The notes under the pieces were generated by a model. That model ran no database searches, was not told the DNA's origin, and saw only the letters and a list, made by a program, of their open reading frames with translations. 64,000 nt of DNA from Rhizaria sp. SCN 62-66 (Eukaryota): positions 1 through 64,000 of the forward strand of contig MEDY01000024.1 of NCBI GenBank assembly GCA_001724265.1, given 5' to 3'. Shown piece by piece: positions 10,928-49,200 of this stretch (positions within the stretch are counted from its first letter, which is position 1; each line of letters opens with the position of its first letter). The translations under genes were made by a program, and so were the position numbers.

Positions 10928-13900
10928 TCAGACAATGGGCTTAACGACCGTGGGCACCTTGATGTCCTCGGCCGGGGGCGCGAAGTAGAAGGGGATGTGT
11001 CCGTCGGCCACAGCGTAGAGGATGGCCTGCGCGGCGCGGTTGATGTCGAGCCGCCCCGACGCAAGCGTGAAGCCGCGCTTGACCGCGTATTGCTCGCAGA
11101 TGGCGTACGCAGACCACGGGTACCGCGGCGAGCCCTCGCTGCCGCCGTCTTCCTCCTCCTCCTCCTCCGCAGCGTCAGCGTCTGCCCCGATCTTGCCGTC
11201 AGCACCCTTCTTGGCGGCCGCGGCCTTGTGTCCGTGCGCACCGGACATGTGGGCCTGCGTGCCGGTTTCGCCGTCGGCGGGCGGCTTGATGCCCAACACG
11301 TCCTCAAGCGGAATGCGCTCGCTGAGGTAGTGCACCGCGGCGACGTACTCGCGCGTGTGCGGAATCGGGAACAGACCCGCAAGCACTTGCAGCGGACGCG
11401 GGATGTCGACCGCGGGAAAGATCAGGCCTGGGCAGTCGCAGAGCACCGTCGTGGCGTTGATCTTGAGCGGTTGCACGATCTTGGTGTGGCCAGGCTGGCG
11501 CGAGACGGAGAGGACCTTCTTGCCCGTCAGTGCGTTGATCAAGCTAGAGTGATGCAAACAAGGAAATTGAACACAAAAGATGTTAGCATGGATACATTGA
11601 CAAAATATGCGCGGAAATATAAGATATTTCAACAATTAGTTCATTTTTTTGTGAGTCGTGCGCGTACCTCGACTTGCCGGCGTTGGGATGGCCGACGGTG
11701 CCAATTGTGAGCATCACGCCCATGGCCTCGGCGGCCGCTTTGGCAGCCTCCGCGGCGGCCTCTTCGTCGACACTGCCCTCGCTGCCGCTGTCATCCTCGT
11801 CCTCGTCCTCATCTTCGGTGTTCTCATGGTCATCGTCGTCGTCGCTGTCGTTGTGCTTGCCCTTGCCGCCCTTTGCGCTCTTAGCACCCTTACCCTTGCC
11901 GCCCTTACCGCCCTTGCTGCTGTCGTAATCCGAGTCAGAGTTGTCGCCCGCACCCTTCTTGCCCGCGTTGAGGATCGCAGCCAGCCCCGCGAGCCGGTTC
12001 CGCGTGCGCCGGTTGCCGCCCACCTCGCCGGCCAGCACACGCGCCACATCATCACCAACATACGCGCGCGCCCGGCCAACCTCACCGCCGCCAGAGCCAG
12101 AACGGTGCGCGCCGCGCTGCCCGCGCTTGTCCTTCTTGTTCTTCTTCTTATTGCTGTTGCTGTTGAGAGACAGTGCAGACAGCGCGGCCGCAGCGTCGTC
12201 GTCGTCGCCGGCCTCGTCGTCCTCGTTCTCGGAGCCCGAGCCGCCCTCGAGGGCGGCGGCGTCCTCGACCGCGGCGCCAAAAAGGCCCTCCGCAGCCTTC
12301 GCCTTAGGCTTAGCCTGACCGGCAACACCGACCGCATCCTCGGCGTCCTCGTCCTCATCATCATCGCCGTCGTCTGCAGTCTTGGTCGCCTTGCCGGCCG
12401 CCTTGCTCTGAAGGTACGCCGCCTGCGCCTTGAGCCGCGCGCGCAGCTCGGCAAGCTCCTGCTCGCGCTTCTCCTGCACCTGCGCGCGCGAGACCGTCTC
12501 GCGGCCTGACAGCAGGCGTGACGCGGTGAAGTTCACCGTCGCAGCCACGGCGTCGGCCTCGAGCTCCTCCGCGGCAAAGTCGCCACTACCCGCGCTGCTC
12601 GTGGTGCTCAGACGGCGCGCGTCGCCGCCCTTGGTAGCCGCCTGCTGCTGCTTGCCGCTCGCAGCGGCAGCGGCCTTGGCCGCTGCGGCAGGCGCGGCGG
12701 CGGGGGCGATGGCGCCCGTGGCAATATTCACGATGCCCGCGCCGCGCTCGCGGATGAGCCCGCGGCAGGCCTCGAGCAGGGCGTCCACGCCCACAGGGTC
12801 GAGCAGCGGCGAGCGCTTCATGCGGCCGACCTGCCGCGCGTGCGCCGCGAGGTCGCTATCGGTCGTGGCCAGCAGCGCCGACTCGATCACGGCCAGCTCG
12901 GAGGCCGAGAGCGAGCGCGCAGCGTCGGCGTCGTGGTGCGCGTGCGCGACGGCAGCCGGCGCGGGCGCGGGCGTGCCGTGCGCGGCGGCCGAGGCGGCGG
13001 CGGCCGCGGCGGAAGCCTCGGATGCGAGTGCGATGCGGTGCGCGGCCGAGGGGTAAGATGAGAAGAGGACGACGTGCAGCAAAGGGTACTTGGCCGCAAA
13101 CCACTTCTGCCACGCACGCAACACAGCCAGCGGCACCAGGTCGATTTTGTTCAGCAGCAACAGCAGAGGCTTCTTCAGGTCCTGTGTCGAGGTGAAAGCA
13201 AGATGTTTGAAAAATAGAGAGTTCGGTGTTAGACAACGAAGATGGATGAGAATAAAGCCAGAGCAGAAATATATTAGATACAAGTTATCCTGCGTCATAG
13301 ATCTTTGTTTTCGTGTGTTAATAAGACTGCCGTAGACTACCGTACCTGCGTGATATAGGAGTAGAGTCCCGGGTTGAAGTGCAGCAGCGGGTGCCGAGCA
13401 TCGGCGACGAGGATGAGGATGTGGCTCTTCTCAGCCGTGCGCCAGAGCTGCCGCCACACGTTGAGATTGTGCTCAAAGTGGTTCAGCCGGTCCGCGCCGT
13501 ACTCGGTGTAGAGCCGTGTAAGATACATGCGGAAGTACTCGGCCTCCTGCGCGTGCAGCTGCGCCGCGGTCATAGTCACAGACCACGGCGGCCGCGACGG
13601 GATCGGCAGCGCCGCGGTGGCGTAGAAGTTCGGCGACGCCGGCGCGCCCGTCAGCCGCGGCGGGTACACGCCGCGCGCGTTGGGCGTGCAGCGGATCAGC
13701 GGCTTCGTGGCGGCCAGACGGCGCTCCTTGATGCCTTCGGCGTCGTCCTTGGCGAAGACTGTGCGGATGGTGGTCCCGCCGCTGGCCTTGGTGCCGGTGT
13801 ATGAGACCGCCGTGCTCTCGAACGAGGTCAGCATGGGCAGCAGGCCGCGGCCGCGGGAGACCGTGTGGAAGCCGCCGTCGTCGGCGGAGGACTTAACCAC

Positions 13901-14251
13901 GCCCGCGGCGGCGTCAGCGGCGGAGAGAGTCGCGGCGGTGAAAGCATCGAGGTTCACGTCTTCGGCGCTCTCGCCAGCGCCAGCGCTGTACTTGCCGGCG
14001 CCAGCGCCACGACCGCCAGCAGCGCTGCCGCCGGAGAACTTGCCGCCCTTGCGGGCACCCTTACCGGAACTGGTGTTGTCGTTGCCGTCAGGGTTGCCGC
14101 CGCCGCCCTTGATGGTCTTTTGCTTGCGGTTCTTGGTGTCTAGCGTGGGGACGTCCTTCCAAACGCTGAGATCAATCGGAGCCGATTCCGGCTCGCGCAC
14201 GGGGGAAGAAGAGTCGTCGCGGTAGCGGTCCTTCTTGCCACGGCGTGACAT
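10928..14251 (-). CDS. GNL1: GNL1/HSR1-like circularly permuted GTPase (YlqF/YawG family), 1011 aa
   Basis: Exons 14251-13346, 13181-11668 and 11543-10928. Motif order is G4 (NKID), G1 (GHPNAGKSS, restored across intron 2), G2 (PGHTK), G3 (DCPG). FEHNLNVWRQLWR...DARHPLLHF and SGRLDINRAA are typical of the GNL1/LSG1 group. Confidence 0.88.
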
Positions 14252-15272
14252 GATAGCTGTGATGCAATGACGCGACGCAAACGGAAAAGAGGGGTAGGAT
14301 CTGTGGTGAGTTTCAAGCGGCACGTATCGATCCAAGAAATATACAGTTTTTGCAAAGACATAGTGCATTAAAATAAAGAATATATATAGTTGCGTATTAA
14401 ACAGTGCTATTGCACTTGATTATATCCTGTTCTCTCGGGAGTGGGTGGTGTAATCTGCGTTGAAGGGCGGCCGAGATCCCGATGTTCCGAAAGAGTGACG
14501 GCAGTCTGATGACACCAGAACTTGTGGTTAGAAACATGTTTCATGCACTTTTGTGCGTTTCTGAAATAATAAAGCCAAAACACTGGCATAACCACATTAA
14601 AATCTGCATTTGATTTTTTATTTTCAGCAACTCGTTTCTTCAAGCTGTGAAAACACAGACATATCTCGTGATCCCTGACTCCAACTCTGCGTAACATAAC
14701 ATTCACAACCTTGTTTACGATAGCTTGCGGTTCTGGTTGCTTCCAACTCTTGCGAAAGCGGCTCTCATGTTGTATTACAACGATTTTTATTTGTTCATAT
14801 GAGCAAACTAAATCGGGTCGATACCTACGCTGGCTCAGCAACTTGAAATAGTTGACCTATGTCATTTATGCGACTTGAAGTCAGACAAACGCGGGAGATA
14901 ATATGGTTATATGAGCGCCTTTACATCAAATACATATGCCAGGAGTGTTAAGTTGGTGTAACATAAGAGTTAGCTCCTGAACTAATGGAATGGCATGAGC
15001 CACTCACAGTCCTAGGTCAAGATGACCAAGGAGAAGGGTCAGCCTGAGATGCGAAACTTCCGAAGATGTTTCGACTTGAGCCAACGATGTTTTGGGGTGT
15101 GCGTGCTACTTAAAGTGCTGCCGTACCGTATTTTTTTTATTCTCACTAACTGTGTTCTTTCAACAACCGTTTCCCCCTCAATCTAAGACGACACGAACAC
15201 TGGGTCACGCATCGCCATTTCGCAAGACCTCCTCGTGCTCTCACATCGTTCTGCGCACTGCACGTGCGTTCT

Positions 15273-18200
15273 ATGCGCATGGCACTAGTATTGCACGCTG
15301 GCAAGGTTTGCATAATGCTTGCGCAAAGCTTACTTTCTGCATTCCTCCTGGCTTGGCTATGCTTTGGACATATTCAAGTTGAGGGCGCACTCCCCACTGC
15401 ATCACCCGTTGTGCATGACGTCGCAAGACCCACTGACGCCGGCAATAGTGACATTTATGCATTAAACACCCCGCCTCCTGCTCCAGTTATGCAGTTAACA
15501 GCGAGCGCGGCGAGCATTTCCCGTCGGCAGCCGATTGAATTCACATCGGCCTCGGTGCCTGACTCTCCCGCTGCAGACTCCTCGTCGCAACGCACTGCAG
15601 ACGCTGCCCGCAACAGTCCCGTTACGCCAGCAGCTTACGCGACCGGACTTCACGATGCAACAAAAATCTTGCACATCGAGCCCGTTGCCCGCCTCACGAT
15701 TGCGTTCCCCGCCATGTCCGCCGCAGCCGCAGCGGCAGCCGCAGCGTTCCCGGCAGCAACACCTCTCTCGCCCCTCCGCTCCCGCGCCCGCGCCACGTCC
15801 CCGCCGGCCGCTTCGCTGTCCCCTCGCCTTGCATCAGCATTCCGCTCCCTCGCCGGGCGCGCGGCGGGCGCCCGCGAGTTCGCCGGCGGCCGTGAAGACG
15901 ACTCGCGCGCCTACACTGACAGCAGGGGCGTCTCGCGGCCTTACGGCGACAGCGTGATGATCGCGTTTGATGCGTACGGGGAACACTTCGAGCTTGACCT
16001 GTCTATTGAAGAGGATTTGTTTTCGCCCGACGTGCTGGTGACGGTGAACTACCCAGGGCCCGGGCCGGCTCCGGCTGATATCAAAGCTAGCTACTCCGAC
16101 GGGCTGCCGCGGCTCGTTCCCACAGCTACAAACACGAACGGCAACGCGGACTCAGTCCGCAGTAGTGACGGTGAGGCTACAACATCAACTACAATGCCTG
16201 CGCCGCGGTTGACCACATTTGTTGGCCAGTTTTCCGAGAGCATCAGCGGTGACGGCAAGGACGACAACGCACACGGCGAGAGCAAAGGCTTTGCAAGTGT
16301 GACACTCTTCCCTGACGGCAGCATCGAGGGCGTCGTAAGCAAGAACGGCGAGATCTACCACGTCCAGCGCGCGCGCGAGCACGAGGTGACCGAGGGCGCC
16401 GCGGCCGCGGACCAGCTCGAAGCGAGCAGTCTCGCGCAAGATGGCGGCGGGCTCACGGTGTACCGCATGAGCGATCTCATGACCGTGGACGAGGACGGGG
16501 AACCGGTGTTGGGCTGCGGCGCTGAGCAGCCGCTCAAGGGTACGGTTACTGTAGGCACGTTGAGGCATGCAGCTGATGGCGACGCTGGGCCTTCTTATGA
16601 CGACGACGACGATGACGACGAGGATGACGATGACTTGTCACTCGAGGACGAGCTGCTGGTATATCAATATCTTGAGCTCGAATTTGGCAGCAACAACGCA
16701 GACAACGCAGCTAATAGAAATAGGCTGCCCGGCGCTGATCAAAATGACAAAGTGTAGCAACTTGAAACCAATCCCGACACTGCAGACAAACCCGTATCCG
16801 TAGAGACTTCAAGTCGCATTGGTCTCTCGCTTGGAGATCGTCTAGGTCGTGCAATGGCACCGCTTCAGGTCAATCTCCTCGAAACTCTTGTTGAGCGCAG
16901 CAACCACTATAACGGGTGGACTCGCACGTCCGAAGGCGGCAACGGTCACGGGCACGGCGGCGCGGCGGAAGATCGCCGCAATGACGGCAGGGACCGTTAC
17001 GAAAGGGCGATAGAATTTGTCGAGCGCAGTCCATACCGTAATCACAGCAAGAGTAGCAGTGGGGGCGAGGCCAACTGCACTGCGGAAGCTCACGCTACGA
17101 ACAACACGTGTGCTAAAAAGACATCGGTTCCATTATCGCAGGTTCTGAGCATGATTGACACAATCTCCAACACACTTTCAAAGATTGTGCCTAAAGTTAC
17201 TCAAAGCACGGGTACCGTAGACGCCGACACTGGCACTGCTAGCCCCTCGGTTTCCTCATCGCATGTGCTCTCTGGCGGGATTCAACTTATGGCTAACGAG
17301 AAGAGCGCCGATACAGGTGCTGCATTCTCTGCGGCTGCTCTGCCGACAGCTATCCCGCAGTCAGTCTCTTCTAGCGCAAACGCAGCTTCTCCAAAGCGCA
17401 GCATTAGTCCTGTTGATCAGGCAAGACGTAACATGCTAAACTGGCGCACAAACATCGCAGCCCGCGCCAAAAACGCCAACACAAACACAAACAACAAGAG
17501 CGGCAACGGCAAGAGCACGGCGACTGCCGCAACTGCAGGGAAGAAGGGCTTTGCAGAAGGGTTGCTGCAACAAGCGAGCACGTCCCGCCGGCCTGCAAGG
17601 CACATGGGCTGGAGCGAAGGCCTACGTGGTACGCATGAAAGCGCGGGTTCAAGTGCCTATGCCAGTTCAGCGAAGAACAAGGTTGCGGGTGCATCAAGTG
17701 CGCAACAGCAAAACAGTCAGCAATTTGACAGTAGTTTAAAGAGTCTCAAGAAAAGTGTGAGAACTATGTCTAACAGTGTTGCAGACAGTCCTGCAACAAG
17801 CGGCAGCAGTGGTGACTTTATGGGTGAAAATGATAATGACACTGATTTATACGCGGATGCAGTGCTACTGGGCGAGCTTCGCCGCCATGGCCAGGAGCTT
17901 AATCGTCTTCTTAAAGAATATCGTCGTAGCAATCGTCGTGATAGGACTCTTAGCAGGCGTAGTGATCGCGCTCACATTGCACACCCACTCACCCACGCCT
18001 ACACTGATAAGCAGAGTGCCGGTGCAGACACGGTAGATAATCTTGCGTCTGCAATGTTTGCGCCTTCCGCATCATCTGCCGCACGCCAAACACTACTAAA
18101 GCGCTGGACCAGCTGCTTTCCCGGCTCAGCCACATCCTCCCGGCGCTTTCATGTGGGTGTTGCTGCAGACATTGGCTTTTACACAGCGCACAACAGTTCG

Positions 18201-20945
18201 CTGGCTACTGTGCAGGCCAAGATCAGCGCCGTGTTCTCCCAGGCCAACGCGGTGTTCCTGACGCAGGTCGGCGTGTACCTCTCGGTTGCGCAGCTCGACA
18301 TGCGCAACGCAGACGGCGGGCCCGACTGGAACAGCTACGGTCGGGCTGACTCGCGCCAGAAGTGTCTCACCACGTCCGCGCTGCTGGACAGCATGGCGAC
18401 GTGGCGCGCCAGCACGTCGCCGTCAACGCGCGGCGCGTGGATGTTGATGACAGACTGTTTTCCGCCGCCGGGCACCGTTGGCTACGCGTACATCGGCACG
18501 TCGTGTCTGAGCAAACACTCTGTCGGCTGGTCGTCGCTGTCGACCGCTCTGTGGCGGACAACAGCACACGAGTTCGCGCACATCCTCGGTGCATCGCACT
18601 CGAGTCTGGGCGGTGTCATGGACCCTACGTCTGACGGCCGCCTGAGCAACACAGACAGTGAAAATCCTGGCGAGTATGGATTCGACAATGTAACCAACAA
18701 ACCTGACATGTGCGAGCATATCACCAAGTCTCTCGCCGGGACCAATACTGTGTTCAGCGGCAACACGCGCATTTCAAACGAGCAGTGCTGGGGCGCAATG
18801 ACCCTCGCGTGCGGCAACGGGGTTGTTGAGACCGGCGAGGAATGCGACCCACCGTCGGCGTGTTGCACCAGCGACTGCCGCTGGCGGCCTCCCGCGGACT
18901 GTAACAACAGCGGGCCGTGCTGCGTGGCATGTCGCGCACAGCCGGTGACCCTGCCATGTGACGATGGCAAGGGATACTGCGCCGCCGGCGGCCAGTGTGC
19001 AGCCTCGGTCTGCGGGAACTATCAAGGTCTTGAGCCGTGCGGAGTTGATCCAACGAACGTGTGCTTGCAGCGGTGCCTTTACCAAGGAACGTGCATTGAC
19101 CTATCAACAGTCAAAAGCAATGGCCAGACGCTGCCGTTTGCTGTGCCCAATGGCTCTCCCTGTGGCGTCGCCAGCGAGCGCCCGACTGCAACGTGCAAGA
19201 CTACCAGCCTCAGTGAGTCAACGTGCGTTCCCGCTAAGTACCAGTGGTACGCAGGCGAGTACGGTGCGTGTTCCCGCTGCTACAACGGCACGCAAGCGCG
19301 CACCGTGCACTGCGTCGACATCACCACGGCCTCAGTTGCTGGCGACGGCAGCACCGCGGCCGTTGTGCACACCGACAACTGCGCGGGGTCTGGGCAGCCC
19401 ACCGCGGAGCGCGCGTGCTCGAGCTCCTGCGACTATAAGTGGGAGCTCGGCGCCTGGAGCGCGTGTACCGGTCCCTGCGGCACGGGGCAGCGCACGCGGT
19501 CCGTGCAGTGCGTCGTCGACAACCACGACGCGAGCACGAGCACGGAGCTCGTTGTGGCGGCAGAAGTGTTGTGCGTGACGGCGTTTGGTGCAAAGCCTGT
19601 CGCGTCCGAGGGATGTGCACTGACGAGCTCGTGCACATACAGGTGGGTGTCGGGTGACTGGGGCAGCTGCTCGATAGACTGCGGAACGACGCCGGGTAAC
19701 CAGACGCGCGATGTCACATGCGCGCGAGTTGGGGACTCCACCAACGCGGCCGTCGATGTTTCACTCTGCACGGCAACGGGGAGTGCCGCGGGAACAAAGC
19801 CCGATGTTAGTCGATCGTGTCAGAATAGTAACGTGTGCGTATTTGCATGGGAACTTAGCACTTACGGCACGTGCACCGCTGCATGCGTTGACCTACCAGG
19901 TATTCGAACGCGCACTGTTACATGTGTCGGTTTGTCGTCAGCTGCGGTAAGCGCTCTTGGTGGCGCCAACAACGTCCCGTCGGTCCTCACCCAGACCGCA
20001 GTCGCACCCGCCACCGGCGTCGTCACCAGCGCAGGCCGCTACACAGTCACGGACACGCGCTGCGTCGCCGCCGACCGGCCTGAAGGCGCTGAGCCCTGCA
20101 CCAGCACCGAGCCGTGCACGTACCAGTGGGTGGCCTCTGAGTGGGGCCAATGCAGCAGCGACTGCGGCCGTGGCACGCAGCGCCGCACGCTCTCCTGCGT
20201 CAAAACAGGCCCCGGCGCCGGCGCGCTAGACTTGGAGCCGAGCACGCTGCCGCTGATGCCGATACCGCCCCAGTCCGTGCCCGCGGCGCTGTCCCTGTGC
20301 GCCGTGGCCGAGAAGCCCACAGAGTCGCGCTCCTGCGCCGAGGCCGAAGGCTGCGCGGAGCTGCTTTGGTACACGGGCGCGTGGGAGATGTGCTCCGCGG
20401 CCTGCGTCAAGGACGGCAACGGCACACAGACGCGACAGGTTGTCTGCACCGAGCGCGCGCAGGTCGCCAACAGTCCAGTACGCGGCGGAGACTACGACGC
20501 CGGCGACGCGGCGTGCCTCACCGCGGTCGGCGCCAAGCCCACCGTGGTGCAGAACTGCCGGGCGCCGTGGGCGTGCGTCTTCGGCTGGGCCGCCGGGACC
20601 TGGGGCGACTGCGTGGTCGACGCCGCCGCGGCCGCGGGCGACGCGTGCGTAGGACAGCAGACGCGGTCGGTGTACTGTGCAGCCACGGGCGACCCCGCTA
20701 AGGCGCCTGTGGCGTTGGGCAACTGCGCCAGTGTGGGCAGCGACACGCTGCCGACGACCACGCGCGCGTGCATTCCGCAGACCTGCGGTGGCGCGGATAA
20801 TAGCGACAGCTCAAGCGCTTCAAATGCGGCCGCTGCAGCTGCGGACTATAGCGCGAGTGCAATGACGGTCGCGATGATTGCGGCGGCTACGATAGGCGTT
20901 ATGATGTGGGCCGCAGCAAAGAACACTGCCAATATGGCTGCGTAA
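15273..20945 (+). CDS. Secreted or membrane-anchored M12B (reprolysin) metalloprotease with prodomain, disintegrin-like domain and seven TSP1 repeats; frame interrupted by one TAG at 16755-16757
   Basis: Signal peptide MLAQSLLSAFLLAWLCFG (ATG at 15273 or 15315). Prodomain motifs FDAYGEHFELDL, GSIEGVV..NGEIYHV and cysteine-switch-like LGCG. Dibasic site LLKR. Zinc motif HEFAHILGASH with Met-turn GVMDP. CGNGVVETGEECD disintegrin start, seven TSP1-type (W..g.wg.C...C..g.qtR.v.C) repeats and a hydrophobic C-terminus. ORFs 15264-16757 and 16854-20945 share a frame with no other stop between them. Confidence 0.85.
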
Positions 20946-36521: not shown

Positions 36522-39229
36522 ATGAGTAACGAACCGCACTTGCCCGTCGTGCCCCTCCCCGAGGTGGTGAACCTGGCCCCCGGCATGACCCGTCAGCGCA
36601 CCAACGGCCACTTCTCGCCCCTCGTGTCCCCCTACATCGTTCCTGAGCACAACCCCACGAACCCTCTCTCGCCCAACGACGCGCTCATCCTCGAACCCCA
36701 CGTTGAGGCCGCCGAGCCCGTGCTTGCCGCTTCCCCGTCTGGCGGCCTCACGGGCACCAGCGACCTCGTCACCGGTCTCGCTGACGACTTCGCGTGGTTC
36801 AACCCGCGTAACCTCAACTCGCGCGCGCGGTACAACTTCCTCGCCCAGCTCGCGTCCATCTCACCCCTTGCCGTCCCACCTACGGCCCACGAGCGCACGC
36901 GCAAGACCGGCATCATCTGCACCATCGGCCCCAAGACCAACTCGCCCCAGGTATGCTACAAGAGCCAGTGAGCTTCATATCACTATGTTACCATACTGTG
37001 TATTTGTGCTTTTTTCATCTAGATCGATCGCGTTGTTCTTGAAACTATGCTCTGCGTCTTGTTTTCAAGTCTTTTTCAGTCAATCACTCACTTTTCCCGT
37101 CTCAATCGCCCTGTTTTCTTGTTCTTTCTTTCTTGTGTGACTGACAGGCAATCGCGACCCTGCGCAAGGCCGGTATGAACGTGATGCGCCTCAACTTCTC
37201 CCACGGCACGTACGAGTACCACCAGTCCGTGATCGACAACCTCAAGGCATCTTACGCCATCTGGCCCGGCCCCGAAGTCGCCGTCGCACTCGATACCAAG
37301 GGCCCCGAGATCCGCACTGGCCGCACCGTCAACGACGCCGACGTGCCGCTCGTCACGGGCGAGGAGCTCACGCTCTCCACGGACAAGGAATGGTTCGACA
37401 AAGGCTGCGCAACGTGCATCTACGTCGACTACCAGAATCTGTCCAAGGTTCTCAAGATCGGCTCGTTCATCTACGTCGACGACGGCCTCATCAAGCTCGA
37501 GGTCACCGCTATTGCCGGCACCACCGTCACCACCAAGATCGTCAACGGCGGCCTCATCTCCTCCCGCAAGGGCGTCAACCTCCCCGGCACGCCCGTTGAC
37601 CTGCCTTCGGTTTCCGAGAAGGACAAGAACGATCTCCGCTGGGCCGCCGAGCGCGGCATCGACTTCATCTTCGCCTCGTTCATCCGCAATGCCGCCGCCA
37701 TCCAGGTACGTAGTGTTCACTATTACAACTGCGTTGATGTTATATCATACTTTGAGTGATGTTATTGATCAGCTTGTAGATGTGGTTCTGGTTTATAAAA
37801 GCAATCGCTGGCTTCGCTCTAGTTCGAGATTCAATTACCATCATCGCCATATCTCACTTCTTGTATTCTATTTTTAAACGAATTTGTATGTTGATGCTAT
37901 GATATACTTGATGCGCAACAGGAGATCCGCGACGTGATGGGCCCGGCTGGCGCGCGCACGCAGATCATCGCCAAGATCGAGAACCAGCAGGGTCTGGACA
38001 ACTTCGACCAGATCCTCATCGCCACCGACGGCGTCATGGTGGCGCGTGGCGACCTGGGCATCGAGATCCCCGTCGAGAAGGTCTTCTTGGCGCAGAAGAT
38101 GATCATCGCCAAGTGCAACATCCTCGGCAAGCCCGTCATTTGCGCCACGCAGATGCTCGAGTCGATGACCACCAACCCGCGTCCGACGCGCGCCGAGGTC
38201 TCGGATGTCGCCAACGCCGTCATGGACGGCGCCGACTGCGTCATGCTTTCCGGCGAGACCGCCAAGGGCAACTTCCCCGCCGAGTCCGTCGCCATGATGC
38301 ACACCATCTGCAAGGTCCGTCAAGTGAAATCGCTGAACAACGAACTTATAAATGACTAAAACACGCTTTATAATGTATCTCTTGTATATCGCACACGTAT
38401 AATCTGAATACGCACAATAACGCAAAGAACTGTGTAATCTATCGGTATTCCTAAATTCACTTTGATCATGATAATTCTGTTGTCATATGTATCTCCTCCA
38501 TTCTAACATAACTCCCTTGCTCTCTTTTGCTCTCGACTGACACTGCTCTACAGGAGGCTGAGTCCGCCGTGTCGAACAACGCGCATTACCGCGCCATCAC
38601 GGACATCCACCCCGAGATGTTCCAGACCTCGGAGACCCTCGCCGGCTCGGCCGTCAACGCCGCCTTCACGCGCTCGCTCAAGGCCATCATCGTCTTCTCT
38701 ATGACGGGCCGCACCGCGCGTCTCGCGGCTAAGTACCGCCCGTCGTGCCCCATCATCTGCGTCACCACGGACCCCATCACCGCCCGCCAGAGCTGCGTAC
38801 GTCGCCTTTATCATCACGCTGCCCTCGCAATATTATTGAAACAAGTGTTGAGCTTTGACTAAAGTCGACGAGAGGTGTTATTGTGATTTATCGACAATAT
38901 CCGTCTTTCATGTAACATGTGTTGCATATGACCTCAAATCTCACCTATTCTTCTCTTTTTTTTCTTTGTTTTTTTTTCTTATCTACTGATTTGTGTATCC
39001 TTGCGCTGTCCAGATGTCTCGCGGCGTGTACCCCGTGCTCGTCAAGGAGGCCTTCGACGCCAACAGCATGACCTGGCTGTCGTACATTGAGCGCCAGCTC
39101 CAGGCCGCCGTCGAGTGCTGCATCGACGGCCCCATCCAGATGCTCCAGCAGGGTGACGTTTGCGTCGTCATCCACGGCTGGGCCGGCGGCCGCGGCCACT
39201 CCAACACCATGCGTCTCATCGTCGTCTAA
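36522..39229 (+). CDS. PYK: Pyruvate kinase, 612 aa, five exons
   Basis: Exons 36522-36950, 37148-37705, 37922-38314, 38554-38796 and 39014-39229, all introns phase 0. Motifs [75 protein letters not shown] and SNTMR are intact. Confidence 0.97.
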
Positions 39230-40218
39230 GCGAGTCTAAGCGACGGAGTCTAAGTGTCGGTTGGAGTGCCAAGGATCTAAGTAGTGCTTGCGCATATGGA
39301 TGCGGTTTCATGCAACACAACAACGCAGTGTATCGGTGTCATGTGGGCTTACTCATGTGATCAAAGCACCACTAAACTGTTCTGCGCTGCTGTCTGTTGT
39401 ATGTTAGTTTGTTAGTTGCTGCTGCTGAAAATAGGCAAAGAGATCCAAACAGAACAATTGTTGTCGCCTGTTACGTCTAAGTTTAGTAATAATGTTGTTG
39501 TTATTATCGAATTTTACTCATATTTTTGGTTTTAATCACACTCGAACACACACATACGCCACGTGCGCACACGCTCACATGTACAGGGTATAAGAATAAC
39601 ACTAAACAATCGCCTCAAAAGCAAATTAGTTTGACTATGACTACATGATACGTATAATACAAGGTTTATATTAGCATATCACTCTGAACCCCCCAGATTC
39701 ACGCCTGTGACAACCTAGGTAAATAACGGCGACCTAGCTTGTGTTGGACTTAAAAGAGAGTGGTGCCCTCTTGATATCGTGCAAACCAGTAAAACAACAA
39801 AACGAGGACATCAAGGGCATCAGTGAAAGTATAACATGCACACATAAGCTATAATTCATAGGAATTGCTTTCAGCGCTTTTGTTTCTTGTGGGAGTGAGT
39901 GAGATGTAAAAGAGGAACTGTTACGCATGAGTTCCGGTGACTGGGTACGAATACAGTGTCTGAGTCTTCTCCTTCCTTGGCGAGAGGCCAAATAAATGGT
40001 TGGCTACAGTGCAACACAGTCGTCGTGTAAAACGCTGATGTTGAATTATATACATCAGATTTCTTTTAATAGCACAACTTGCTAATAACACCCCCTTAAT
40101 ATAACTAACAACCGTGTGATTCACGTCCTTCCTTCCCAGCTTCAGTAACAGCTATCTTGCCTCGTCGGCTCTCTCTTCCACCCTACATTGTGCGTCGCGA
40201 CCGCGCCCCCGTCGCATC

Positions 40219-43200
40219 ATGTCGCGTCCCGCGGCTTCTTCCAAGCCGAATCCGTCGCGCTCCTTGCGCCAGCAGTCCTCGTCATTTCTGCTGCCAGCAA
40301 ACGATGCTTCCTCGCACTACCCGTCATCGTCAGCCTCCGGGCTTAACAGCCTCGGCGGCCCCGGCGCAGGCTCCAGCTCCTCCGCGTCCTCGGCGGCGAT
40401 GCTGATGTCCCTCCGCGCGCTTCCGCCCGCGGCCGCGGCCGCCGCGGCTGCTGACTTTGACGGCGCCGTGAGCGGCGAGATCGCGACTCTGATCGCGCAG
40501 GCCTCGAGCCACAGCCCCGGCGGCGTCGGGAGCCTTGGCGCCGCGCTCCCCGGAGCCGGCGTCGGCGCCGGCGCGCGCAACAGCGAGGCGGTTATCTTGT
40601 CCGAGCTGGAGGCCGCCGGCGCCGCCGTCACAGCCGGGTTTGCGACTGTGGCCGAGGCCGTCGCTGCGGGGGTCGTGTCGCCGAATGCGCTCAACGCCAA
40701 CGCGCGCAGCAAGCGGAACAAAGGCGTGAAGAATGTGGCCCGCCGCCGTCGCCGTGAGCAGCAGCAGCAAGAGCAGCAGCAGTTCAACGGCGCTGATATC
40801 GGCGACATCAATATCAGCGATCTCGACGCCGACAACTACTACGACGACGACAGCGACGGCGCGCCATTTGACGCCCTCCAGAACAACAGCAACAGCGACA
40901 GCGACGGCGACGGCGACGGCAACACCAACAGCGACGACGACGGCGCTCCCGCGGGCTCCGGCGGCTGCGGTAACAGCAGCAGCAGCCGCAAAGCCAAGGG
41001 GGACAAGAGCGGCGCGCGCCCCCGCTTCCTCCCCGCGCCGGTGCTAAAATCCCTCTCGCTGCCGCCGCCGCCACTGCCGCACCAGTCTGCCGCCGCCTCG
41101 GGCTCCGGCGCCGCCGCCAGCGCCCTGGGCAGCGCCAGCGCGCTCGCCGCGGCAGCCGCGAGCGGTGGCGGCATGACCGCGGCCTCGGCCTCGGCGGCGG
41201 CGCGCGACCGCCGCGCGCTGCTCGTGGCCGCCGCCACGGCGTCGCTGACCGGCGACGCGTACGCCGCCGCGCTGGCCGCCGCGCGCGCGCGCCACGCGCA
41301 GGAGCGCCGCGCCACGGCCGCGCCGCTGCTGTTCCTGGGCTTCGACGGCGAGCCCATCGCGCCGGGCTCCGCGCTCGAGGCGCTGCTCGTGTGGTATATC
41401 CGCAGCAAGCCTGCGCTGTGGGGACACGCGCTCGCGCGCGTGTGGAGCGACGCGGAGCCGTTCCACGTCGATCTGGCTCAGGCCGCGGCCGCGTTCGCGA
41501 CGACGGCGAGCGTGGCGACTGTCGCGGGCATGGCGGCCGATTTCACCACGAACGGAAACGGAAACAACGGCAGCGCGAACGTGAATGGCGGCAATGGCGC
41601 CGGCGCTGGCTCTGGTAACAGTAGTTCTGCTGCGAACAACGGCAGCACTATTAGAAATAGCTTAGGCAGTGCGTTCGAGTACTATAGCCAGATTGTGTCC
41701 ACGCAGTCGCATGCACAGACGCAACAGATTCTTTCGCTTGCGCAAGAGCAACAGCAGCTGCAGCAGCAGCAGAATGGCAGCAACACGAGCTCTAAAACGA
41801 ACTTTGCGTCAAAAAACGGCGGCAGTAGCGCGCCGATCAGTCGGAAGCATCGCGGCAACTTGGCCACTGCCGCTGCCGTCGCATTGGCGAACCTCGCAAC
41901 ACCGCAAACCTCTGCAACTGCTTCTGTCAACACGGACAACGCGAATCTGAGCAGTGCCAGTAGTAGAAACTCGGTTAACACCGCTGTGTTGGCGATAGTT
42001 CCTCCACCGGCAACTCTCACCCCCGTCCCTGTCTCGGCCAACCCCGTAGCGGCGTCTAAGTATCCCCTCAGCCCCAGCAGCAGCAGTGCCTTCTCTAACA
42101 GTACTCCTAGCGCTGGTGCATACCCGAGCAACGAGACCGCCGCGGCAGACGCGCTCGCACATGCGACGGCGACTGCCGCTGCCACTGCCTACCCCGCCCG
42201 GCTCGTGGCCGCGGCGGCCGAGGTCGGGGCTGCGGCCGCGCCCGCGGTGCTCGTAGCCGCTGCCGCGGTGGCCACGGGGGCGCCCGTGGCTGTGACCGTG
42301 GGCGGCACGGGTCCCGCGGGTTCCCAGGCGACTGCGAAGCGTGGTTCTGGTGTCGGTTTAATGGACAACTTGAGCAGCAGCAGCAGTAGCCAGCTGCGCC
42401 TAGATCCGTCTAAGGGCCACTTAGACGCGGCCTCGCAGACGGAGCATGAGCGAGAGCAGGAGCAAGCGCAGGAAAGCAAGACTGACACCGCCAACGCTGG
42501 CAGCTACAGCAATAGCTGCAATAGCAACGGCGTCGTGCTCTTCACAGTTGGCTTCACGCCAGTGGGCTACTCGTGGTCGCCACCCTTGCCGCCACAGCTT
42601 ACCCACTTGCACCCCGCGACCGTGCCCCTACACTCCGCCAACAGCGGCAGCGGCAGCGGCGGCTACCAGCAGCAGCAGCAGCAGGAGCAGCAGTTGCAGC
42701 AACAGGGCGGCTACTACGACGCCTCCAGTAGCGCCAACGGCGGCGCGGCGCGCATCGCGAGCGTCGGCGCTGCGATGAATCTAAGGGGCGTGGGCACTTA
42801 CCCGCACAACTGCCGCGCGCAGGCGCTGGGCTATCCCACCGTCACGCACCACCAGTCGCTGCCCGCCATCGCCACGAGGCTCGCGCAGTTCGCCCCGGCG
42901 GCGGTGCAGTCGCCCGTACAGTCGCTTTACGGTGGCGCCAACAGCTACGCCAACGCAGACTCTCTCTCGGGCTCGGGCTCGGGCGCTGGCTCGGGCGCTA
43001 AGGGCAGTGGCACCGGAGTCGGCGCTGTCGGCGGCGGTGCTCCCGCCGCCGCCACCGCTGCGGCCGCCGCCACCGCCGCTGCCTCCGCCGCGGCTTCCGC
43101 GTGCGCGCCCGCCGCCCCCGCGGCCGCTGCCGCCGCGGGCGCCGCCGCCGCCGTCACACTGCTCGCGGTCGCGGCCTCTGCGCGGCCCCCCGTCGTCGCC

Positions 43201-46200
43201 GCCGCGGGCTCCCTCGCCGGCAGTGGCGGCGGCGGCGGCGGCGGCGGCGGCGCTCTCGCGCTGGGCGGCGGCGCAGGCTCCGGTGCGGGTGCCAGCGCGG
43301 GCGGCGCGGACGGGGACGACTGGGTCACGCAGGCCGTGCTGGGCAACAAACCGCGCGCGCGCCGCCGCGCCGCCGCCGCAGCCGGCGCTGGTGGTGCCGG
43401 CGGCGGCGCCGCCAGCGGTGGGAATGCGGGCGCGAGCGGCGCTGACGCGGACAGCGCTGGCCGCAAGGCTGCGCTGCCGACCGCGGGCAGCACCGCGAAC
43501 GGCAGCGGCAACGGCGGCGGCAATGGCGGCGCTGGTAAGAACGGCAGTGGCAACAAGGGCAACGCTAGCGCCGGCCAGAGCGGCAGCGCGAGCCGCGTCG
43601 CGCTGTACGCGGCCGGTCTGTCGCAACCGCCTCTGCTGGCCGCCGCCGCGGCCGCCGTGACCGCGGGCGCGGTGTCGCTGATGCCACGCGCAGCCGCCTG
43701 CCCTCTCACCTCTTCCTACCAAGCCGCCCTGAACAACAACAGCAACAGCGGCGGCGGGTCAAACGGCGGCGGCGGCAGCGGCGTGAGCCCCGCGGCGCCG
43801 TGGGCCGTGCTGGCGCGCGTCGCTCCCGCCGCCGTGCTCCGCTGCGACGTCCGCCCGCTGCTGGCCGTGCTGTCGAGGCGCCGCGGCGGACTTGCGGCCG
43901 CCGCGGCGCTGGCCGTGGCCCCTGCGCGCGCCAAGGAACGCGTGACCGCAGGCGCCGTCGCCGGGAACGCGTTCAAAGGCGGCGCACGCGGCGGCAGAGG
44001 CGGCGCGGCGGCGGCGATGGTGCGCGGGAGGCACGCCAGGCACGGGTCAATCTTACCGCTTCTCGCGCCCGTGGCGGCGACGTCGGCGGCAGCGGCAGCG
44101 TCGTCGCTGAGGCAGTCTAACAGCGGCAGCAAGCCTGACGGCGACGCGAGCGACGCCGACAGCGACGCCAACGACGCGGGCGGCAGCAAAGCGACAGGCG
44201 CAGACGCGAGAGACGCCGCGAAGAGCGCCGCGACTGCTGCTGCTGCTGCTGCTGCTGCTGCAAGCGGCGGCGACGACAAGCAGAAGCAGGACCAGGAGCC
44301 CGAGCCGCAGCAGCAGCAGCAGCAGCGCGGCCGCCGGCGCCGCAGCACCGCCAACTCCGGCTCGCTGCTGCTCTCGTCCTCGCGCCTCACGCCCGTGCCG
44401 CTGGCGCTGGCGCATCCCTTGGTCCGCGCTTCGGCCGCCAAGGCGCTGGCGGCCGCGCTCTCCCCGCTGCCGCCCCCGGCTCCCTCCCACGGCGGCGGCG
44501 GCGGCTCCGGCGGCGGCCCCAGTGCCACCGCCGCGGCCGCCGCAGCCGCGGCCAGCGCTGCGATGCACAACAACGCGTACAGCAGCGTGAGCGATCACAG
44601 TGCGGTCGGCGCGGTCGCGGCGGCAGCGGCCGTGGCAGCGCTGGCGTCGGTCTCCGCCACCGTCGCGCCGCTGTCGCGCGCGCGCGAGTTCGCCGTGGCG
44701 TCAGCCGCGACTGTGCGCTCGCTGACACGCCGCGCGACCAGTCTGAGCGTCCCTTACAGCTGCGGGCTCAGCGCGCAGGACGGGACGAGTCTGAGTACCC
44801 CCTTAGTCTCAGGACTCAAGCCGCCGACCGTGGGCCAGGGTGTCCTCGCGCGCCGCTACACCAGCCAAAGCGGCGGCCACGCAAGCAGCGGCGGTGGCAG
44901 CAGCACCAACGGCGGTAGCAGCGGCAGCAGCAGCCACAGCAACAGTCGTGGTCGCGGCGGCCACGGCAGCGTGTTGACGGCGGCGGCCACGGCGGCGGCC
45001 AACTCCAACAGCAGCCTTGTCGCGACCGCGGGCGTCAACGGCAGTGGCGGCGTCGGCGGCTGCGACTGGCTGTTCCTGTCGCCGTTTGTGACGCCCGACG
45101 GCGCTGGCGTCGGCGGGCCTGGCAGCGCGAGCTACTGCGGGCTTTTGCCCGTCAGCTGCGGCTACGCAGGGCTGCTGACGACGGAGCAGGAGGACGAGGA
45201 GGAGGACGACGACGAGGACGAAGACGGCAGCAACAGTGCCAACAACCAGGCACTCCCGCAGCAGCAGCAGGAGTTGGCGAAGAGCCCGAGTGCCAGCCTC
45301 GTCTCCTCTCCCGCGAACGCCGGCGCGGGCAACGCGAGCGCGCGCCTCGCCTCCAGCCCGCGCGCCGCCGACAGCGTCCCCCTCCCTGGCCACACCGGCG
45401 GGAGCGGCGCTGCGATGGTGGCGACATCGGTGACCGCGACGGCGCTCGCCGCGGCGGGCGCTGCGCTGACCGCGCTCGGCTGGGGCTCGGCGCACGGCCA
45501 CTTGCTCACGATCGCCCCGCGCGACGCCTTCGCCACCAAGCTCTACAGCAACAACAGTAATAGCAATGGTAACAACCACAACAACAGCAGCATGAGCGCG
45601 ATGGCGATGGCGAACTTGCATGTGCGCTCCGTCACACTCACGGTCGACAGCGCCTTGTCGCTGCTCGCGCCGTTGCCCTCCGCCGCCGCCGCGGCCGCGC
45701 TGTTCCCCCGCGCCGCGACTCACGCGCTCGCGTCGCCGGCGCTCTGGCGGCCCTTCGCGCCCCTGCCTGGCGCCGCGCTCGCGCACGCGCAGCTCCTCCT
45801 CAGAGCCTCCTCTTCCGCCGCCGCCGCCGCTGGCAATCAGTTCCCCGCCGACGTGAGCGGTGCCGACAGCGCTGCCGGCGGCGCGCGCGGTGGGCGGGCC
45901 GGGGTGTGGAACCCGGCCGCGTGGGCACGCTTCCTCGCCTCCCCGGCCGCGCCCGCGCTCTTCCAGCGGCTCATCGTCGTTGCGCACAGGCAAGTCCTCG
46001 TCTCGGCTGCCGCGGCCACCGCGCGCGCCGCCGCCGCGGGCGAGCTGCCCGCGCTCAACGCCAACGCCAGCACGGCCTTCGCGGTGGCGGGCGCGACCGG
46101 CGTGGTCACTGCGGACGATGCGCTGTCCAAGGCCTCATCGGCTTCGGCGGCCGCGGCGGCCGCGTCGGCGGCGGAGGCCGAGGCTGATGCTGAGGCTGCG

Positions 46201-49200
46201 GTCATGCGTCAGCAGCAGGGCAAGAACGGCAGTGACGGGACCATTGGCGGCAACTTTCATCTCCTGCACCTGAACGTGCATACCCGGTCCCGCGGCCCCG
46301 GCTCCCCGCCACACACCGCGGGGGGCGGCCTGACTTCCCCGCGCTCGGGCAGCGGCACCGGGCTCGCCTCGCCGCACGCGCACACGCACACGCGTAACTC
46401 GCCGGACCTGTCTCCGTACAGCCTGAGCCGCAGCGTGTCGCCCACAGCGGCGGCGGCGCCGATGCCGCTGGTGCTGCGGCGCGCTTCTGCGACTGCCGTG
46501 AGCATCGAGGGCGACGGCGACGCGCTGCTCTCCCCGCACAGCGACGACGTCGACGGCGACCCCGCGCAGAGCCACACGGCGCTGCAGCTCCAGCGCCAGC
46601 GGCTGCGGCGGCAGCAGGAGCAGCTCGAGCGCAGCCGCCGCCAGCCAGTGACGCGCGCCGAGTGGGCGCAGCGGCCCGCGCTCGCCGCTCTTATCGCCCG
46701 GCTCGGACTGGCGCCCGCAGTCGCGCTGGGCAGCGTTGCGCTCGCGCAGTCGCTGCCGCTCACAGTCACCGCGCCTACCAACAGCGCGGTCGCCGCACTC
46801 ACGCCCGCGGCCGCGGCGACCGCGGCCGCGGCGGCGGCGGCGGCGGCGGTCGCGGGCGTGTACAGCCACGGGCACGGACACGGGCGGGGCAGCGACTGGG
46901 ACAGCGACGATGACGACGACGACGACGATGACGATGATGACGTCGCCGCGGCCGTTGGAGCCGATGGCAAGCGCCGCCCCAGCGTCACGTCCTCGACCTT
47001 CGGCAGCGCCTTGGGCGGCAACCGCGGCTCAGTCGCCGGCGGCTTCGGCGTCGGCATTGGCCTCGGTTTCGGCGCCCGCAGGCCCGGGTTCGGCCCCGGC
47101 ACCATGGGTGTCAGCGTCGGCGCAGGCAGGAGCGCGAAGCGCGTGCTTGTCGAGCCCGACTTGCCCGGCCGCTGCATCTGGCTGCCGTCGTCGGTCGGCA
47201 CGTACGACCCTGCGTGCAGTCCGATCATCGCGCTGCCCACAATCGCGCACTCGCACGCGCACGCCCACGCGCAGGCGAACAACAACGGCAACGGGATGAG
47301 CGCGCGTGGGAAGTCTGGCGGTGTGAGCCCTCAAGCGCTGCACGGCACGAGCTTGCAGTCGCAGACAGTCGCGCTGTCGGGCTCGCAGTCGCTGTCGCAG
47401 GGGAAGCTAAGCCGCGTCCTGACCAACAGCAGCAGCAGCGGCATTAACAACGCCAACAGCACCGGCGCTCTGAACAGCAACGACGCGACGGCGACGCAGT
47501 CACGGCTGCCTGCCGCCACAGCGCTTGCAAACAGCAACAGTGTTAGCGACGACGGCAACACTTCGAACGGCGTCAACAGCGCCAGAGACGCCCTGGCCAG
47601 CGGCGGCACTGGCAGCGGGTTCGAGAGCGGCGAGGATGACGGCTCGTTCAGCGCGCTGCCGTCCCCGCGCGGTAGCCCCAGCCCCCGCCTCGCGAGCCCG
47701 AGAAACGGTGCGAGCGGCAGCAACGACGCCAGCAGCCTCAGGGAGGGCGCGTTCAAGGCGCGCCCGCAGCCGCCCGCGTCGTCTGGCTCTTCCCGCGCGC
47801 AGCAGCAGCAGCAACAGCAGCAGGCGCGGGCGCGCGCGCAGGCGCAGGCGCAGGCGGCGGCGCTCGCGCTGGCAGCGCCGACCCCCACTGCTGGGAGCAT
47901 GGGCCCCGGCTCCGCGGCATCCGCGTTCTTCCCTGCGCCCGCGAGCGCCGCCGGCACTGCCCATGGCGCCATCAGCGGCGCTAACGGCGGTGCGAGCGCG
48001 AGCGTGCCAGTGGTGCCCAGCGGCCCCGGCCTCGGCCTGCCCGCGCACTCGTACGCTGCGCTCCCGTCGCTGCCGCAGTCCTCTAACATTAACGCTAACA
48101 GCGGCGGCGGCAGCAGCAGCAGCGGCAGCTTCGCGCTCGCGCCGCACAGTGCGAGGACAGAGGGGTCCAAGTTGGCGCTTACATCGGCGCCCTCGGCCTC
48201 GTCTAAGGGCGCCGGCGGCCAGGGTAAGGGTGTGTTCAAGTGTTTGTCCTCTGCTGCACTCGCGACGGGCGCCGCGCTGGCCGCCGCCACCGCGTCGACT
48301 GCGGACCTGCTCCAGCTCCAGCATCAATCCTCGTCCTCGGCGCTCTCCCACCACGCGGGCGCGGGCGGTCTGGTGAGCAGCAGTAGCAGCTACAGCAAGC
48401 TGGGCGGCGCCGCTGCCTCGGCCTCTGTCGTCGCCGCCACCGCTGCCTCCGCGGCCTTCGCCTCGGCCTCGGCGGCCTCGCTGCCCCCGTCGCCGCTGCT
48501 CTCGGGCCCCGGCGCCGGTCTGCTGCTCTGTGAGGCCTTCGCGGCGCTGTGCGAGACCGTGATCGCGGCGATGCCCGGCGCGCTCGGGCCCGTCGTCACG
48601 CTCCCCAGCCCCGTCGGCGCCGCCTCCACCAAGCCGAGTGCAAGTAACAACAACAACGGAAGCAATCATGCTAGCGCGAGCTCTGGCTTCAACGCTCGTC
48701 CCAGCACTGGCGCGGATTATAGTGACAGCGCGAATGGTTTAGCCTCCGGTCTCGGTGCGCTAGGACTGGGTTTCTCTGTCGCGCTCGACGTCACGCACCA
48801 CCCCGTCGAGGGCGTCTACACCGTCAGGCTGCACCGCGCGCCCTGGGCCGCGCCCACGGTCAACATCCACACAGCCGCAAACACGGCCATCTGCTCCACT
48901 CCGCCCACAGCTCCCGCCGCGGCCACAGGCGCCGTCTCGGGGAGCGCAGTGCACAACACCAGCGCGCTGTGCTTGGTGCCGTCACTACTGTCCTTCGCCC
49001 CGTCGCTGCCTCTGGCGCCGACGCTGCTGCCGCTGCTGCCGCCGCTGACGCTGCTGGCGCTGGCCCGCGACCGCAGTCTGCTGCCCGCCGTGCGCGCGGC
49101 GGCCTGGCGCGCGCTGCCCTCGCAGCTGCGCGTGCGGGAGGCGCTGGCCGCCGCAGCCGCAGTCGCTGCCGTCGCCGCTGCCGACGCGGCCGCCACCGCC

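Follow-up and report, generated by a model that had tools for sequence, protein, structure and literature searches.

Introduction

Zymogens of the ADAM/ADAMTS type (MEROPS M12B) are the described proteases most similar to the product of the gene considered here, which lies in a 64,000-nucleotide (nt) stretch of DNA from Rhizaria sp. SCN 62-66 (GenBank assembly GCA_001724265.1, contig MEDY01000024.1, positions 1 to 64,000 of the forward strand; hereafter the window). Its reading frame runs from an ATG at 15273 to a TAA at 20943–20945 (1890 codons in translation) and is interrupted by one in-frame TAG. Three described systems bear on such a stop. UAG followed by CARYYA, the leaky stop of tobamoviruses, appears in the excerpted text of two reports as an established stimulator of readthrough (PMC3542737, PMC4132726), and the mutagenesis in the excerpt of the second indicates that all six CARYYA positions matter (PMC4132726). 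Exitrons are characterized in the excerpted text of Marquez et al. (2015, PMC4484396) by intermediate guanine-plus-cytosine content (GC), a length divisible by three (3n), weaker splice sites, a host exon of great length and an origin in coding sequence. Young unitary pseudogenes, finally, are nonsense alleles with a single lesion.

The original prediction proposed programmed readthrough of this TAG, and listed a 3n intron, a nonsense allele and a sequencing error as alternatives. We find that a plain nonsense allele is the simplest reading, and we tentatively favour a real stop that is retained in the mRNA, in a recent allele with at most a minor leak.

A single stop within one protease gene

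An open reading frame (ORF) of 1890 codons cannot be chance at such length. The TAG is its sole internal stop, the letters around it are GAC AAA GTG TAG CAA CTT GAA, and the first in-frame ATG beyond it lies 32 codons on, at 16854; all of this agrees with the original description of the site. The ORF upstream of the stop has separately been called as a 492-amino-acid protein, P0007.

As judged from related proteins, the upstream and downstream ORFs (Table 1) are one gene, because P0003 (1850 amino acids, 43% identity overall) aligns to both sides of the TAG as a single protein, and P0008 and P0010 carry both parts, N-terminal block and catalytic domain, in one chain. The downstream part consists of disulfide-rich extracellular domains and has no signal sequence, so the two halves must be joined to yield a working secreted protease. 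Two separate genes were considered and ruled out on these grounds. The claims that the two ORFs form one gene, that the TAG falls between the prodomain-like and catalytic parts, and that the downstream half has an intact catalytic site and no signal peptide of its own were thus well founded.

The product is, from its domain content, a new ADAM/ADAMTS-like protease with an unusually long linker. HEFAHILGASH fits the zinc-binding motif HExxHxxGxxH, and the catalytic domain matched Pfam Reprolysin_5 (52.4 bits, cut-off 27; 55.4 bits on the subsegment alone), Reprolysin_4 (37.6 bits, cut-off 22) and Reprolysin_3 (28.1 bits, cut-off 22.4), while the classical PF01421 model reached only 13.9 bits, under its cut-off of 20.8. 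TSP1_ADAMTS scored 117.5 bits over five stretches and TSP_1 31.1 bits. Pfam Disintegrin (PF00200) gave no match to the protein, and the disintegrin-like assignment rests on the CGNGVVExGEECD start. In the Protein Atlas, the catalytic region fell only among animal and fungal ADAM clusters.

The signal peptide and prodomain first assigned to the upstream part fared less evenly: a hydrophobic N-terminus and a conserved block are indeed present, but the upstream ORF matched no Pfam model even at E ≤ 10, Pep_M12B_propep included. Both assignments therefore remain putative, suggested by the hydrophobic N-terminus, by position and by the block conserved with relatives, in which HIEPV, PYGD, VTLFPDGSIE and YRxSD are common to the window's protein, P0003, P0008 and P0010. 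The same four proteins share a CG[AT]xxP motif that is cysteine-switch-like in appearance. P0009, which begins later, retains the last of the shared N-terminal blocks and has CGTLTP at the aligned place.

Between this Cys motif and the catalytic domain lies a linker of about 500 residues, found otherwise only in P0003; in distant relatives the catalytic domain follows about 50–140 residues after the motif. Similarity to P0003 restarts at RAMAPLQVN, near 16848 (E = 2e-12), whereas the translation of 16539–16754 had no significant BLASTP similarity to P0003 (E = 3) and alone cannot prove coding. The only acidic runs of P0003 nevertheless occupy the same interval as that of the window's protein, from the CG motif to LQVN, which spans 116 residues in the window (unspliced) and 136 in P0003. 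An exhaustive HMMER search with the upstream ORF returned six matches, among them no close relative informative at the TAG position. A metagenome scan for relatives' DNA found 54 loci, the best at 34% identity and too distant for comparison of the TAG region; the contig of P0002, a relative with 61% identity, was absent from these 54 loci.

Further downstream, window positions 17616–17945 encode about 110 residues beyond those of P0003 and include the lowest-GC stretch of the gene (0.37–0.39). A consensus-like donor, GTG/GTACGCATG (the slash marks the exon–intron boundary), lies at 17629, five codons past HMGWS, at the place of the extra residues. An intron at this donor was rejected for want of a 3n acceptor, and the stretch was taken as coding sequence missing from P0003.

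The TAG is real and is not an error confined to one assembly. In run X3, a 4052-nt contig spans 14800–17811 with no differences from the window, of which X3 is possibly the source. A 1232-nt contig from run X4, which belongs to another study (2025), spans 15847–17078 and has neither a gap nor a change at the TAG. Sequencing error, one of the alternatives first listed, is contradicted by this second contig, which comes from a separate study and a sequence three single-nucleotide differences away. Over the 6.4 kb compared, X4 differed from the window at 15305, 16235 and 18141, corresponding to two synonymous changes upstream of the TAG (K11K and S321S) and one non-synonymous change downstream (R957W, a C>T at 18141). 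R957 is identical in P0003 and lies in an RRFHVG stretch where the catalytic domain begins. As a single site, R957W gives only a hint of relaxed constraint downstream of the stop. The RRFHVG stretch could, at a guess, be a dibasic processing site.

Exon-like sequence and candidate introns around the TAG

Where a eukaryotic ORF contains a lone in-frame stop, an intron is usually invoked, and this genome has introns. We assembled a set of 19 from the window: four in the pyruvate kinase gene identified by homology, two identified by ORF breaks and 13 found by a scan for GT..YAG segments with an AT-rich interior between GC-rich flanks, filtered at GC < 0.43. The pyruvate kinase introns are 197–239 nt long with GC of 0.36–0.40, donors GTATGC, GTACGT, GTCCGT and GTACGT, CAG acceptors and CTGAC/CTGAT-like motifs close to their 3' ends. 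Across the 19, lengths range from 124 to 274 nt and GC from 0.31 to 0.42 (0.35–0.40 in the six that did not pass through the GC filter). Donors read GTACG[TCG] in 15 of 19 and have G at +5 in all 19; acceptors are YAG behind a mostly T-rich stretch, and there are usually 2–5 stops per frame. Donor and acceptor position weight matrices were built from these introns and scored leave-one-out; true acceptors scored −2.7 to 27.3 bits in training and had a median of 10.2 under leave-one-out.

Against this background the segment around the TAG is exon-like, coding-type sequence. From the GTACGG donor-like site at 16540, the in-phase acceptors delimit segments of 246, 264 and 306 nt (ending at 16785, 16803 and 16845), each a multiple of three, as first noted. 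The 246- and 264-nt segments fall within the local intron range; the 306-nt segment and a separate 99-nt candidate (16659–16757) fall outside it. The interval 16540–16785 has a GC of 0.51, above all 19 local introns. The three frames of the 16540 segment hold 2, 12 and 1 stops, the coding frame having one in 82 codons, and no T-rich tract precedes the candidate acceptors, whose scores are as low as those of only two of the 19 true ones (leave-one-out). A coding-versus-intron codon score gave −0.02, −0.24 and −0.40 around the TAG, values equally low in certainly coding stretches, so that the score does not discriminate. Since the lower GC and near-zero coding score of the linker also occur in parts of the ORF that are certainly coding, they fit weak constraint and not an intron. 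The earlier remark that the segment looks coding, with an in-frame Asp run, is borne out by its GC, by the single stop in 82 codons and by the acidic runs of P0003 in the same interval, although the acidic run argues for coding through its position only.

The donor itself is less easily dismissed. When 42,911 nt of coding sequence are scanned on the sense strand, only two sites score at least as high, and one of these is a true donor. Such a donor lies within 232 nt upstream of 77 of 12,311 in-frame positions, and is joined by an in-phase YAG at 35 of 12,311. In 20,000 local codon shuffles, an equal donor arose in 2.0% and a donor plus in-phase YAG in 1.4%, while the simpler motif GGTACG[CGT] has eight chance sites in 43,014 nt (about 4% per 232 nt). 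Overall, the chance rate of the 16540 donor is probably about 1–4%.

It is therefore possible, though we would not call it probable, that a facultative exon-derived 3n intron resembling an exitron extends from 16540 to 16785 (246 nt), 16803 or 16845. Spliced mRNA would then encode a full-length secreted protease minus the acidic run, unspliced mRNA a free prodomain fragment, and its bypass by splicing may be why the stop was tolerated. At AGG/GTACGGTTA the donor agrees with the GTACG[TCG] consensus and scores above the leave-one-out median, it is rare in coding sequence, and the whole arrangement is seldom reproduced by shuffling; the 246-nt segment is both 3n and of ordinary intron length, the traits of exitrons given above (PMC4484396, excerpted text) are those of this segment, and the similarity to P0003 that is insignificant within it returns just past 16845. 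Set against these points, exitrons are by definition stop-free in the excerpted text of two sources (PMC4484396, PMC10985678) and the 16540 segment contains a TAG. Its acceptors are weak and without a T-rich tract, and splicing would remove the acidic run, which has a positional counterpart in P0003. The 17629 donor of the same gene, which has no 3n acceptor, indicates that such sites arise by chance, and the CAA CTT context would become a coincidence (1.9%, see below). Neither contigs nor protein fragments showed a spliced form, but the RNA contigs missed the site and their silence has no weight.

A constitutive spliceosomal intron, from 16540 to any of the three acceptors or from 16659 to 16757, is quite unlikely. 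For the 16540 segment the consensus donor is offset by weak acceptors, by the in-frame acidic run positionally shared with P0003 and by a GC of 0.51 against 0.31–0.42 in the partly GC-filtered set (0.35–0.40 in the six filter-free introns), and as a classical intron it is unlikely. The 99-nt candidate, which ends at the AG of the TAG itself, has the lowest GC of all candidates (0.44); CTGAT lies 17 nt upstream of its AG, and one other frame contains stops. It has A at +5, however, where all 19 introns have G, and is shorter than every one of them. The intron alternative of the original prediction thus holds in part: its donor fits the genome's consensus and is rare in coding sequence, but the interior is coding-like, and any such intron would be at most facultative and exon-derived.

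Stop context and stop-codon usage

The hexamer CAACTT matches five of six CARYYA positions, as originally claimed, and the earlier account of this motif and of what it does agrees with the excerpted text of PMC3542737 and PMC4132726. Among 14,263 in-frame codon pairs in the window's long ORFs, however, 265 (1.9%) match at least five positions and 18 match in full. The sixth base here is T and not A, which fails both CARYYA and the yeast variant CARNBA.

Programmed readthrough, in which UAG-CAA CUU would be decoded at a set low rate to give abundant free prodomain and a minority of full-length protease, is on balance unlikely. Its evidence is the five-of-six match above this background, to an established stimulator (PMC3542737, PMC4132726, both in excerpt), along with the intactness of both ORFs and the absence of TAG from the ten placed gene ends. 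The mismatch at the sixth position counts against it, given that all six mattered in the excerpted mutagenesis (PMC4132726). Predicted RNA structure in the 126 nt from the stop is unremarkable (z = −0.56; 50 of 200 shuffles fold equally well or better), and neither a suppressor tRNA nor another RNA gene was found in the window. Adenines directly 5' of a stop favour readthrough; here the preceding codon is GTG, and the two bases 5' of the TAG are not adenines. Mid-gene readthrough is rare in cellular genes. Conservation is not demonstrable: no relative has a conserved TAG, and P0003, which alone among close relatives is full-length, reads as sense codons across the whole region. Readthrough would also reduce the 16540 donor to a coincidence (1.4%). 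The proposal of programmed readthrough consequently comes down to a hexamer with a 1.9% background, with a failing sixth base, no 3' structure and no conserved TAG.

We placed ten gene ends in the window, with terminal-exon status inferred, of which nine are TAA, one is TGA and none is TAG. An apparent TAG end at 13337 sits within the inferred intron 13182–13345. These figures would be expected if TAG had been reassigned as a sense codon, but a sample of ten ends is too small to establish avoidance of TAG or its weakness as a terminator. Other long ORFs in the window (3639, 2380, 2143, 1432 codons and others) total about 14,300 codons and contain no in-frame TAG; a reassigned codon would be expected to recur there. 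The window contains no tRNA gene. TAG is unlikely to be an ordinary sense codon here, and reassignment is the least probable of all the readings, to the point of being very nearly negligible.

RNA and protein fragments at the site

Run X11, of poly(A) RNA, contains exact contigs at 16236–16495, 18294–18510 and 19926–20129, on both sides of the stop. The interval 16496–18293 is unbridged in X11 except by promiscuous (GAC)n matches, no joint is reported at the candidate sites, and the contigs could reflect DNA carry-over. X11 also has exact contigs at 14800–14885 and 14947–15174, 5' of the protease ATG, which could be a long 5' leader, the transcript of a divergent neighbour or DNA carry-over.

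Run X6, labelled as cDNA and predicted to be DNA, has small exact contigs on either side of the TAG and none across 16540–16860. Two of its contigs (16563–16628 and 16599–16688) lie inside the candidate intron, and nothing was drawn from them. Of the five X6 records that fall on unique sequence, three (these two and 19238–19644) open with 15–19 non-fitting letters at the start of the record, which looks technical, a primer or adapter remnant, and not biological.

The (GAC/GAT)n run attracts contigs of other organisms, and joints and loose ends at 16597–16635 were rejected as signals. Depth in the bin 16512–16725 of X3 and X4 rises to 195–760 over a baseline of about 6–8, owing to the same run. 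We also looked among shorter proteins for fragments spanning a spliced junction. For residues 370–570, only the window's own 492-amino-acid ORF was among the matches listed (8000 candidates), and for residues 497–660, none of 1243 candidates scored. The lack of a spliced contig carries no weight, as the few RNA contigs stop short of the site.

A nonsense allele as the favoured reading

We tentatively propose that the TAG is a premature stop in exonic, coding-type sequence, within the lineage-specific, acidic, low-complexity linker of an ADAM-like protease gene. The nonsense mutation would have arisen recently, in a weakly constrained part of the gene. The stop would stay in the mature mRNA, and translation from the ATG at 15273 would mostly end at codon 495. 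The predicted product is a secreted fragment of about 494 residues, essentially a prodomain fragment, comprising the signal-like N-terminus, the prodomain-like block (cysteine-switch-like motif included) and the acidic run. The catalytic part would be made only by the few ribosomes that misread UAG, perhaps aided by the CAA, or never.

Several observations weigh against this proposal. The 16540 donor with its in-phase acceptors becomes a coincidence (1.4% of shuffles; 35 of 12,311 positions) and, if there is no readthrough, the CAA CTT context becomes a second one (1.9%). Run X1 (2015) holds every sampled word of the stretch, and the TAG is present in contigs of X3 (2017) and X4 (2025); a stop seen in all three is not a fleeting variant, although X1 to X3 are perhaps the window's own source. 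With no stop among the 1395 codons downstream, the gene can only have been inactivated very recently, if at all. The absence of TAG from ten gene ends leaves room for weak UAG termination. The sequence evidence, moreover, comes from contigs, in which minor alleles are lost and no splice junction is seen at this site.

Taken singly, both bypass signals look non-random, and no reading does without one or more coincidences of about 2%. Under a knockout, donor and context must both be fortuitous; under splicing the context must be, and a stop must sit inside exon-like sequence; under readthrough the donor must be, on top of the low prior for a mid-gene cellular case. The odds are soft, having been set from rough priors.

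It is doubtful, though conceivable, that the TAG is kept as a switch, under which most product would be free secreted prodomain and a set minority of bypass, by splicing or readthrough, would give a membrane-anchored ADAM-like protease. The free prodomain could then act in trans as an inhibitor or chaperone, by analogy with cysteine-switch prodomains. A stop-containing 'exitron', or mid-gene cellular readthrough, would in that case control the zymogen-to-inhibitor ratio in a protist.

Feature coordinates and gene content of the window

The coordinates of the protease features, splice candidates and reference introns are collected in Table 1.

Table 1. Features of the protease gene, the site of the TAG and the introns identified by homology or ORF breaks, in window coordinates.
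Feature	Position	Strand	Basis or remark
Upstream ORF, 494 codons	15273..16754	+	signal-like N-terminus, prodomain-like conserved block, acidic linker; translation
Hydrophobic N-terminal stretch, likely signal peptide core	15309..15368	+	inferred from translation; P0003 and P0010 start similarly
CGAEQP, cysteine-switch-like, closing the prodomain-like block	16515..16532	+	pattern CG[AT]xxP
GTACGG donor-like site	16540..16545	+	context AGG/GTACGGTTA; 10.6 bits vs true-donor leave-one-out median 9.6
Acidic run DAGPSYDDDDDDDEDDDDLSLEDELL	16581..16658	+	only stretch of the protein with at least 10 D/E in 15 residues
Weaker 99-nt 3n candidate, GTATAT to the TAG's own AG	16659..16757	+	donor 6.6 bits, acceptor 4.1 bits, GC 0.44
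In-frame TAG, codon 495	16755-16757	+	sole internal stop of the frame; also in X3 and X4 contigs
CAACTT, 3' stop context	16758..16763	+	5/6 CARYYA positions; sixth is T, not A
Downstream ORF, 1395 codons and TAA	16758..20945	+	linker, catalytic domain, disintegrin-like start, TSP1 repeats, hydrophobic tail
Three in-phase YAGs, ending at 16785, 16803 and 16845	16784..16845	+	0.3, −4.1 and 3.6 bits
Reprolysin-type (M12B) catalytic domain	18138..18632	+	Reprolysin_5 match; HEFAHILGASH at 18567-18599
CGNGVVETGEECD, start of disintegrin-like Cys-rich region	18810..18848	+	conserved in P0002, P0003 and P0004
Thrombospondin type 1 repeat array	19239..20780	+	span from first to last W-x-x-W-like repeat start
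C-terminal hydrophobic stretch, inferred membrane anchor or glycosylphosphatidylinositol (GPI) signal	20859..20918	+	translation
Pyruvate kinase introns	36951-37147, 37706-37921, 38315-38553, 38797-39013	+	homology
ORF-break introns	13182-13345, 51019-51200		ORF breaks

The window is eukaryotic DNA from a bioreactor/wastewater metagenome, and the runs that hold the stretch are from bioreactors, wastewater and activated sludge. Its eukaryotic origin is marked by a BEACH/WD40 gene present as a single 2143-codon ORF, by a prolyl-tRNA synthetase fragment and a PQ-loop gene, and by the pyruvate kinase gene (36900–39229, plus strand), which is split by four introns and ends in TAA. In the Protein Atlas, a pyruvate kinase exon used as a taxonomic marker matched only clusters of bacterial fragments. 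A tRNA scan and a search for Rfam matches found none in the 64 kb. Base composition is two-toned, with exons at GC 0.6–0.75 and introns and spacers at about 0.35–0.42.

Within 40120–52712 (plus strand), a 3639-codon ORF has no Pfam match and seems joined to a 503-codon ORF (51201–52712) at a 182-nt intron, 51019–51200, with donor CAG/GTACGC. Several other very long ORFs (2380 and 1432 codons) likewise have no Pfam family. At 11583–14419 (minus strand), two ORFs overlap in different frames, and their simplest join is a 164-nt intron, 13182–13345, with donor CAG/GTACGG.

Discussion

The stop is of modest interest unless regulated bypass appears in RNA or protein data. If it is a nonsense allele, as we tentatively favour, the gene is a young pseudogene of an ordinary kind, from an environmental eukaryote, and serves mainly as a caution against over-reading stop contexts. 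If it is spliced out, it would lie in a stop-carrying, exon-derived intron, in a window whose introns are otherwise very uniform, and might be a snapshot of intron birth through the rescue of a nonsense mutation. Readthrough, finally, would make it one of the rare mid-gene cases in cellular genes, setting the ratio of free prodomain to protease. The stop aside, this uncultured microbial eukaryote contributes an ADAMTS-like architecture in which an unusual linker of about 500 residues separates the cysteine-switch-like motif from the catalytic domain.

Compared with known ADAM/ADAMTS-type zymogens, the window's protein has the same HExxHxxGxxH motif, matches to Reprolysin Pfam models, CGNGxxExGEECD disintegrin-like start, five ADAMTS-type TSP1 repeats, putative pro-region closing in a conserved, cysteine-switch-like Cys-Gly motif and hydrophobic C-terminus. 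It differs in that its pro-region matches no Pfam model, that its long linker is shared only with P0003, and that it comes from an uncultured, unicellular-type wastewater eukaryote with a frame broken by one TAG. With the tobamovirus leaky stop (UAG CAR YYA, or CARNBA in yeast; PMC3542737 and PMC4132726, as excerpted) it shares the UAG, the CAA and two pyrimidines; unlike that stop, it has U as the sixth base, occurs mid-gene in a cellular gene, is not conserved and is known from sequence alone.

Like the exitrons in the excerpted text of Marquez et al. (2015, PMC4484396), the 16540 segment lies inside a very long coding exon, is 3n, combines a strong donor with a weak acceptor, has a GC between those of introns and exons, and is of coding ancestry. 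Exitrons, in contrast, are stop-free and described there in plants and animals, whereas this segment carries a TAG and its splicing is a prediction from genomic letters. Young unitary pseudogenes offer the remaining parallel, with one stop in an otherwise intact ORF, a weakly conserved region and possibly relaxed constraint downstream (R957W in X4). Here, unlike in such single-lesion alleles, the stop recurs in the runs of two studies (2017 and 2025) and is flanked by two independent bypass-type signals, each with a background of about 2%.

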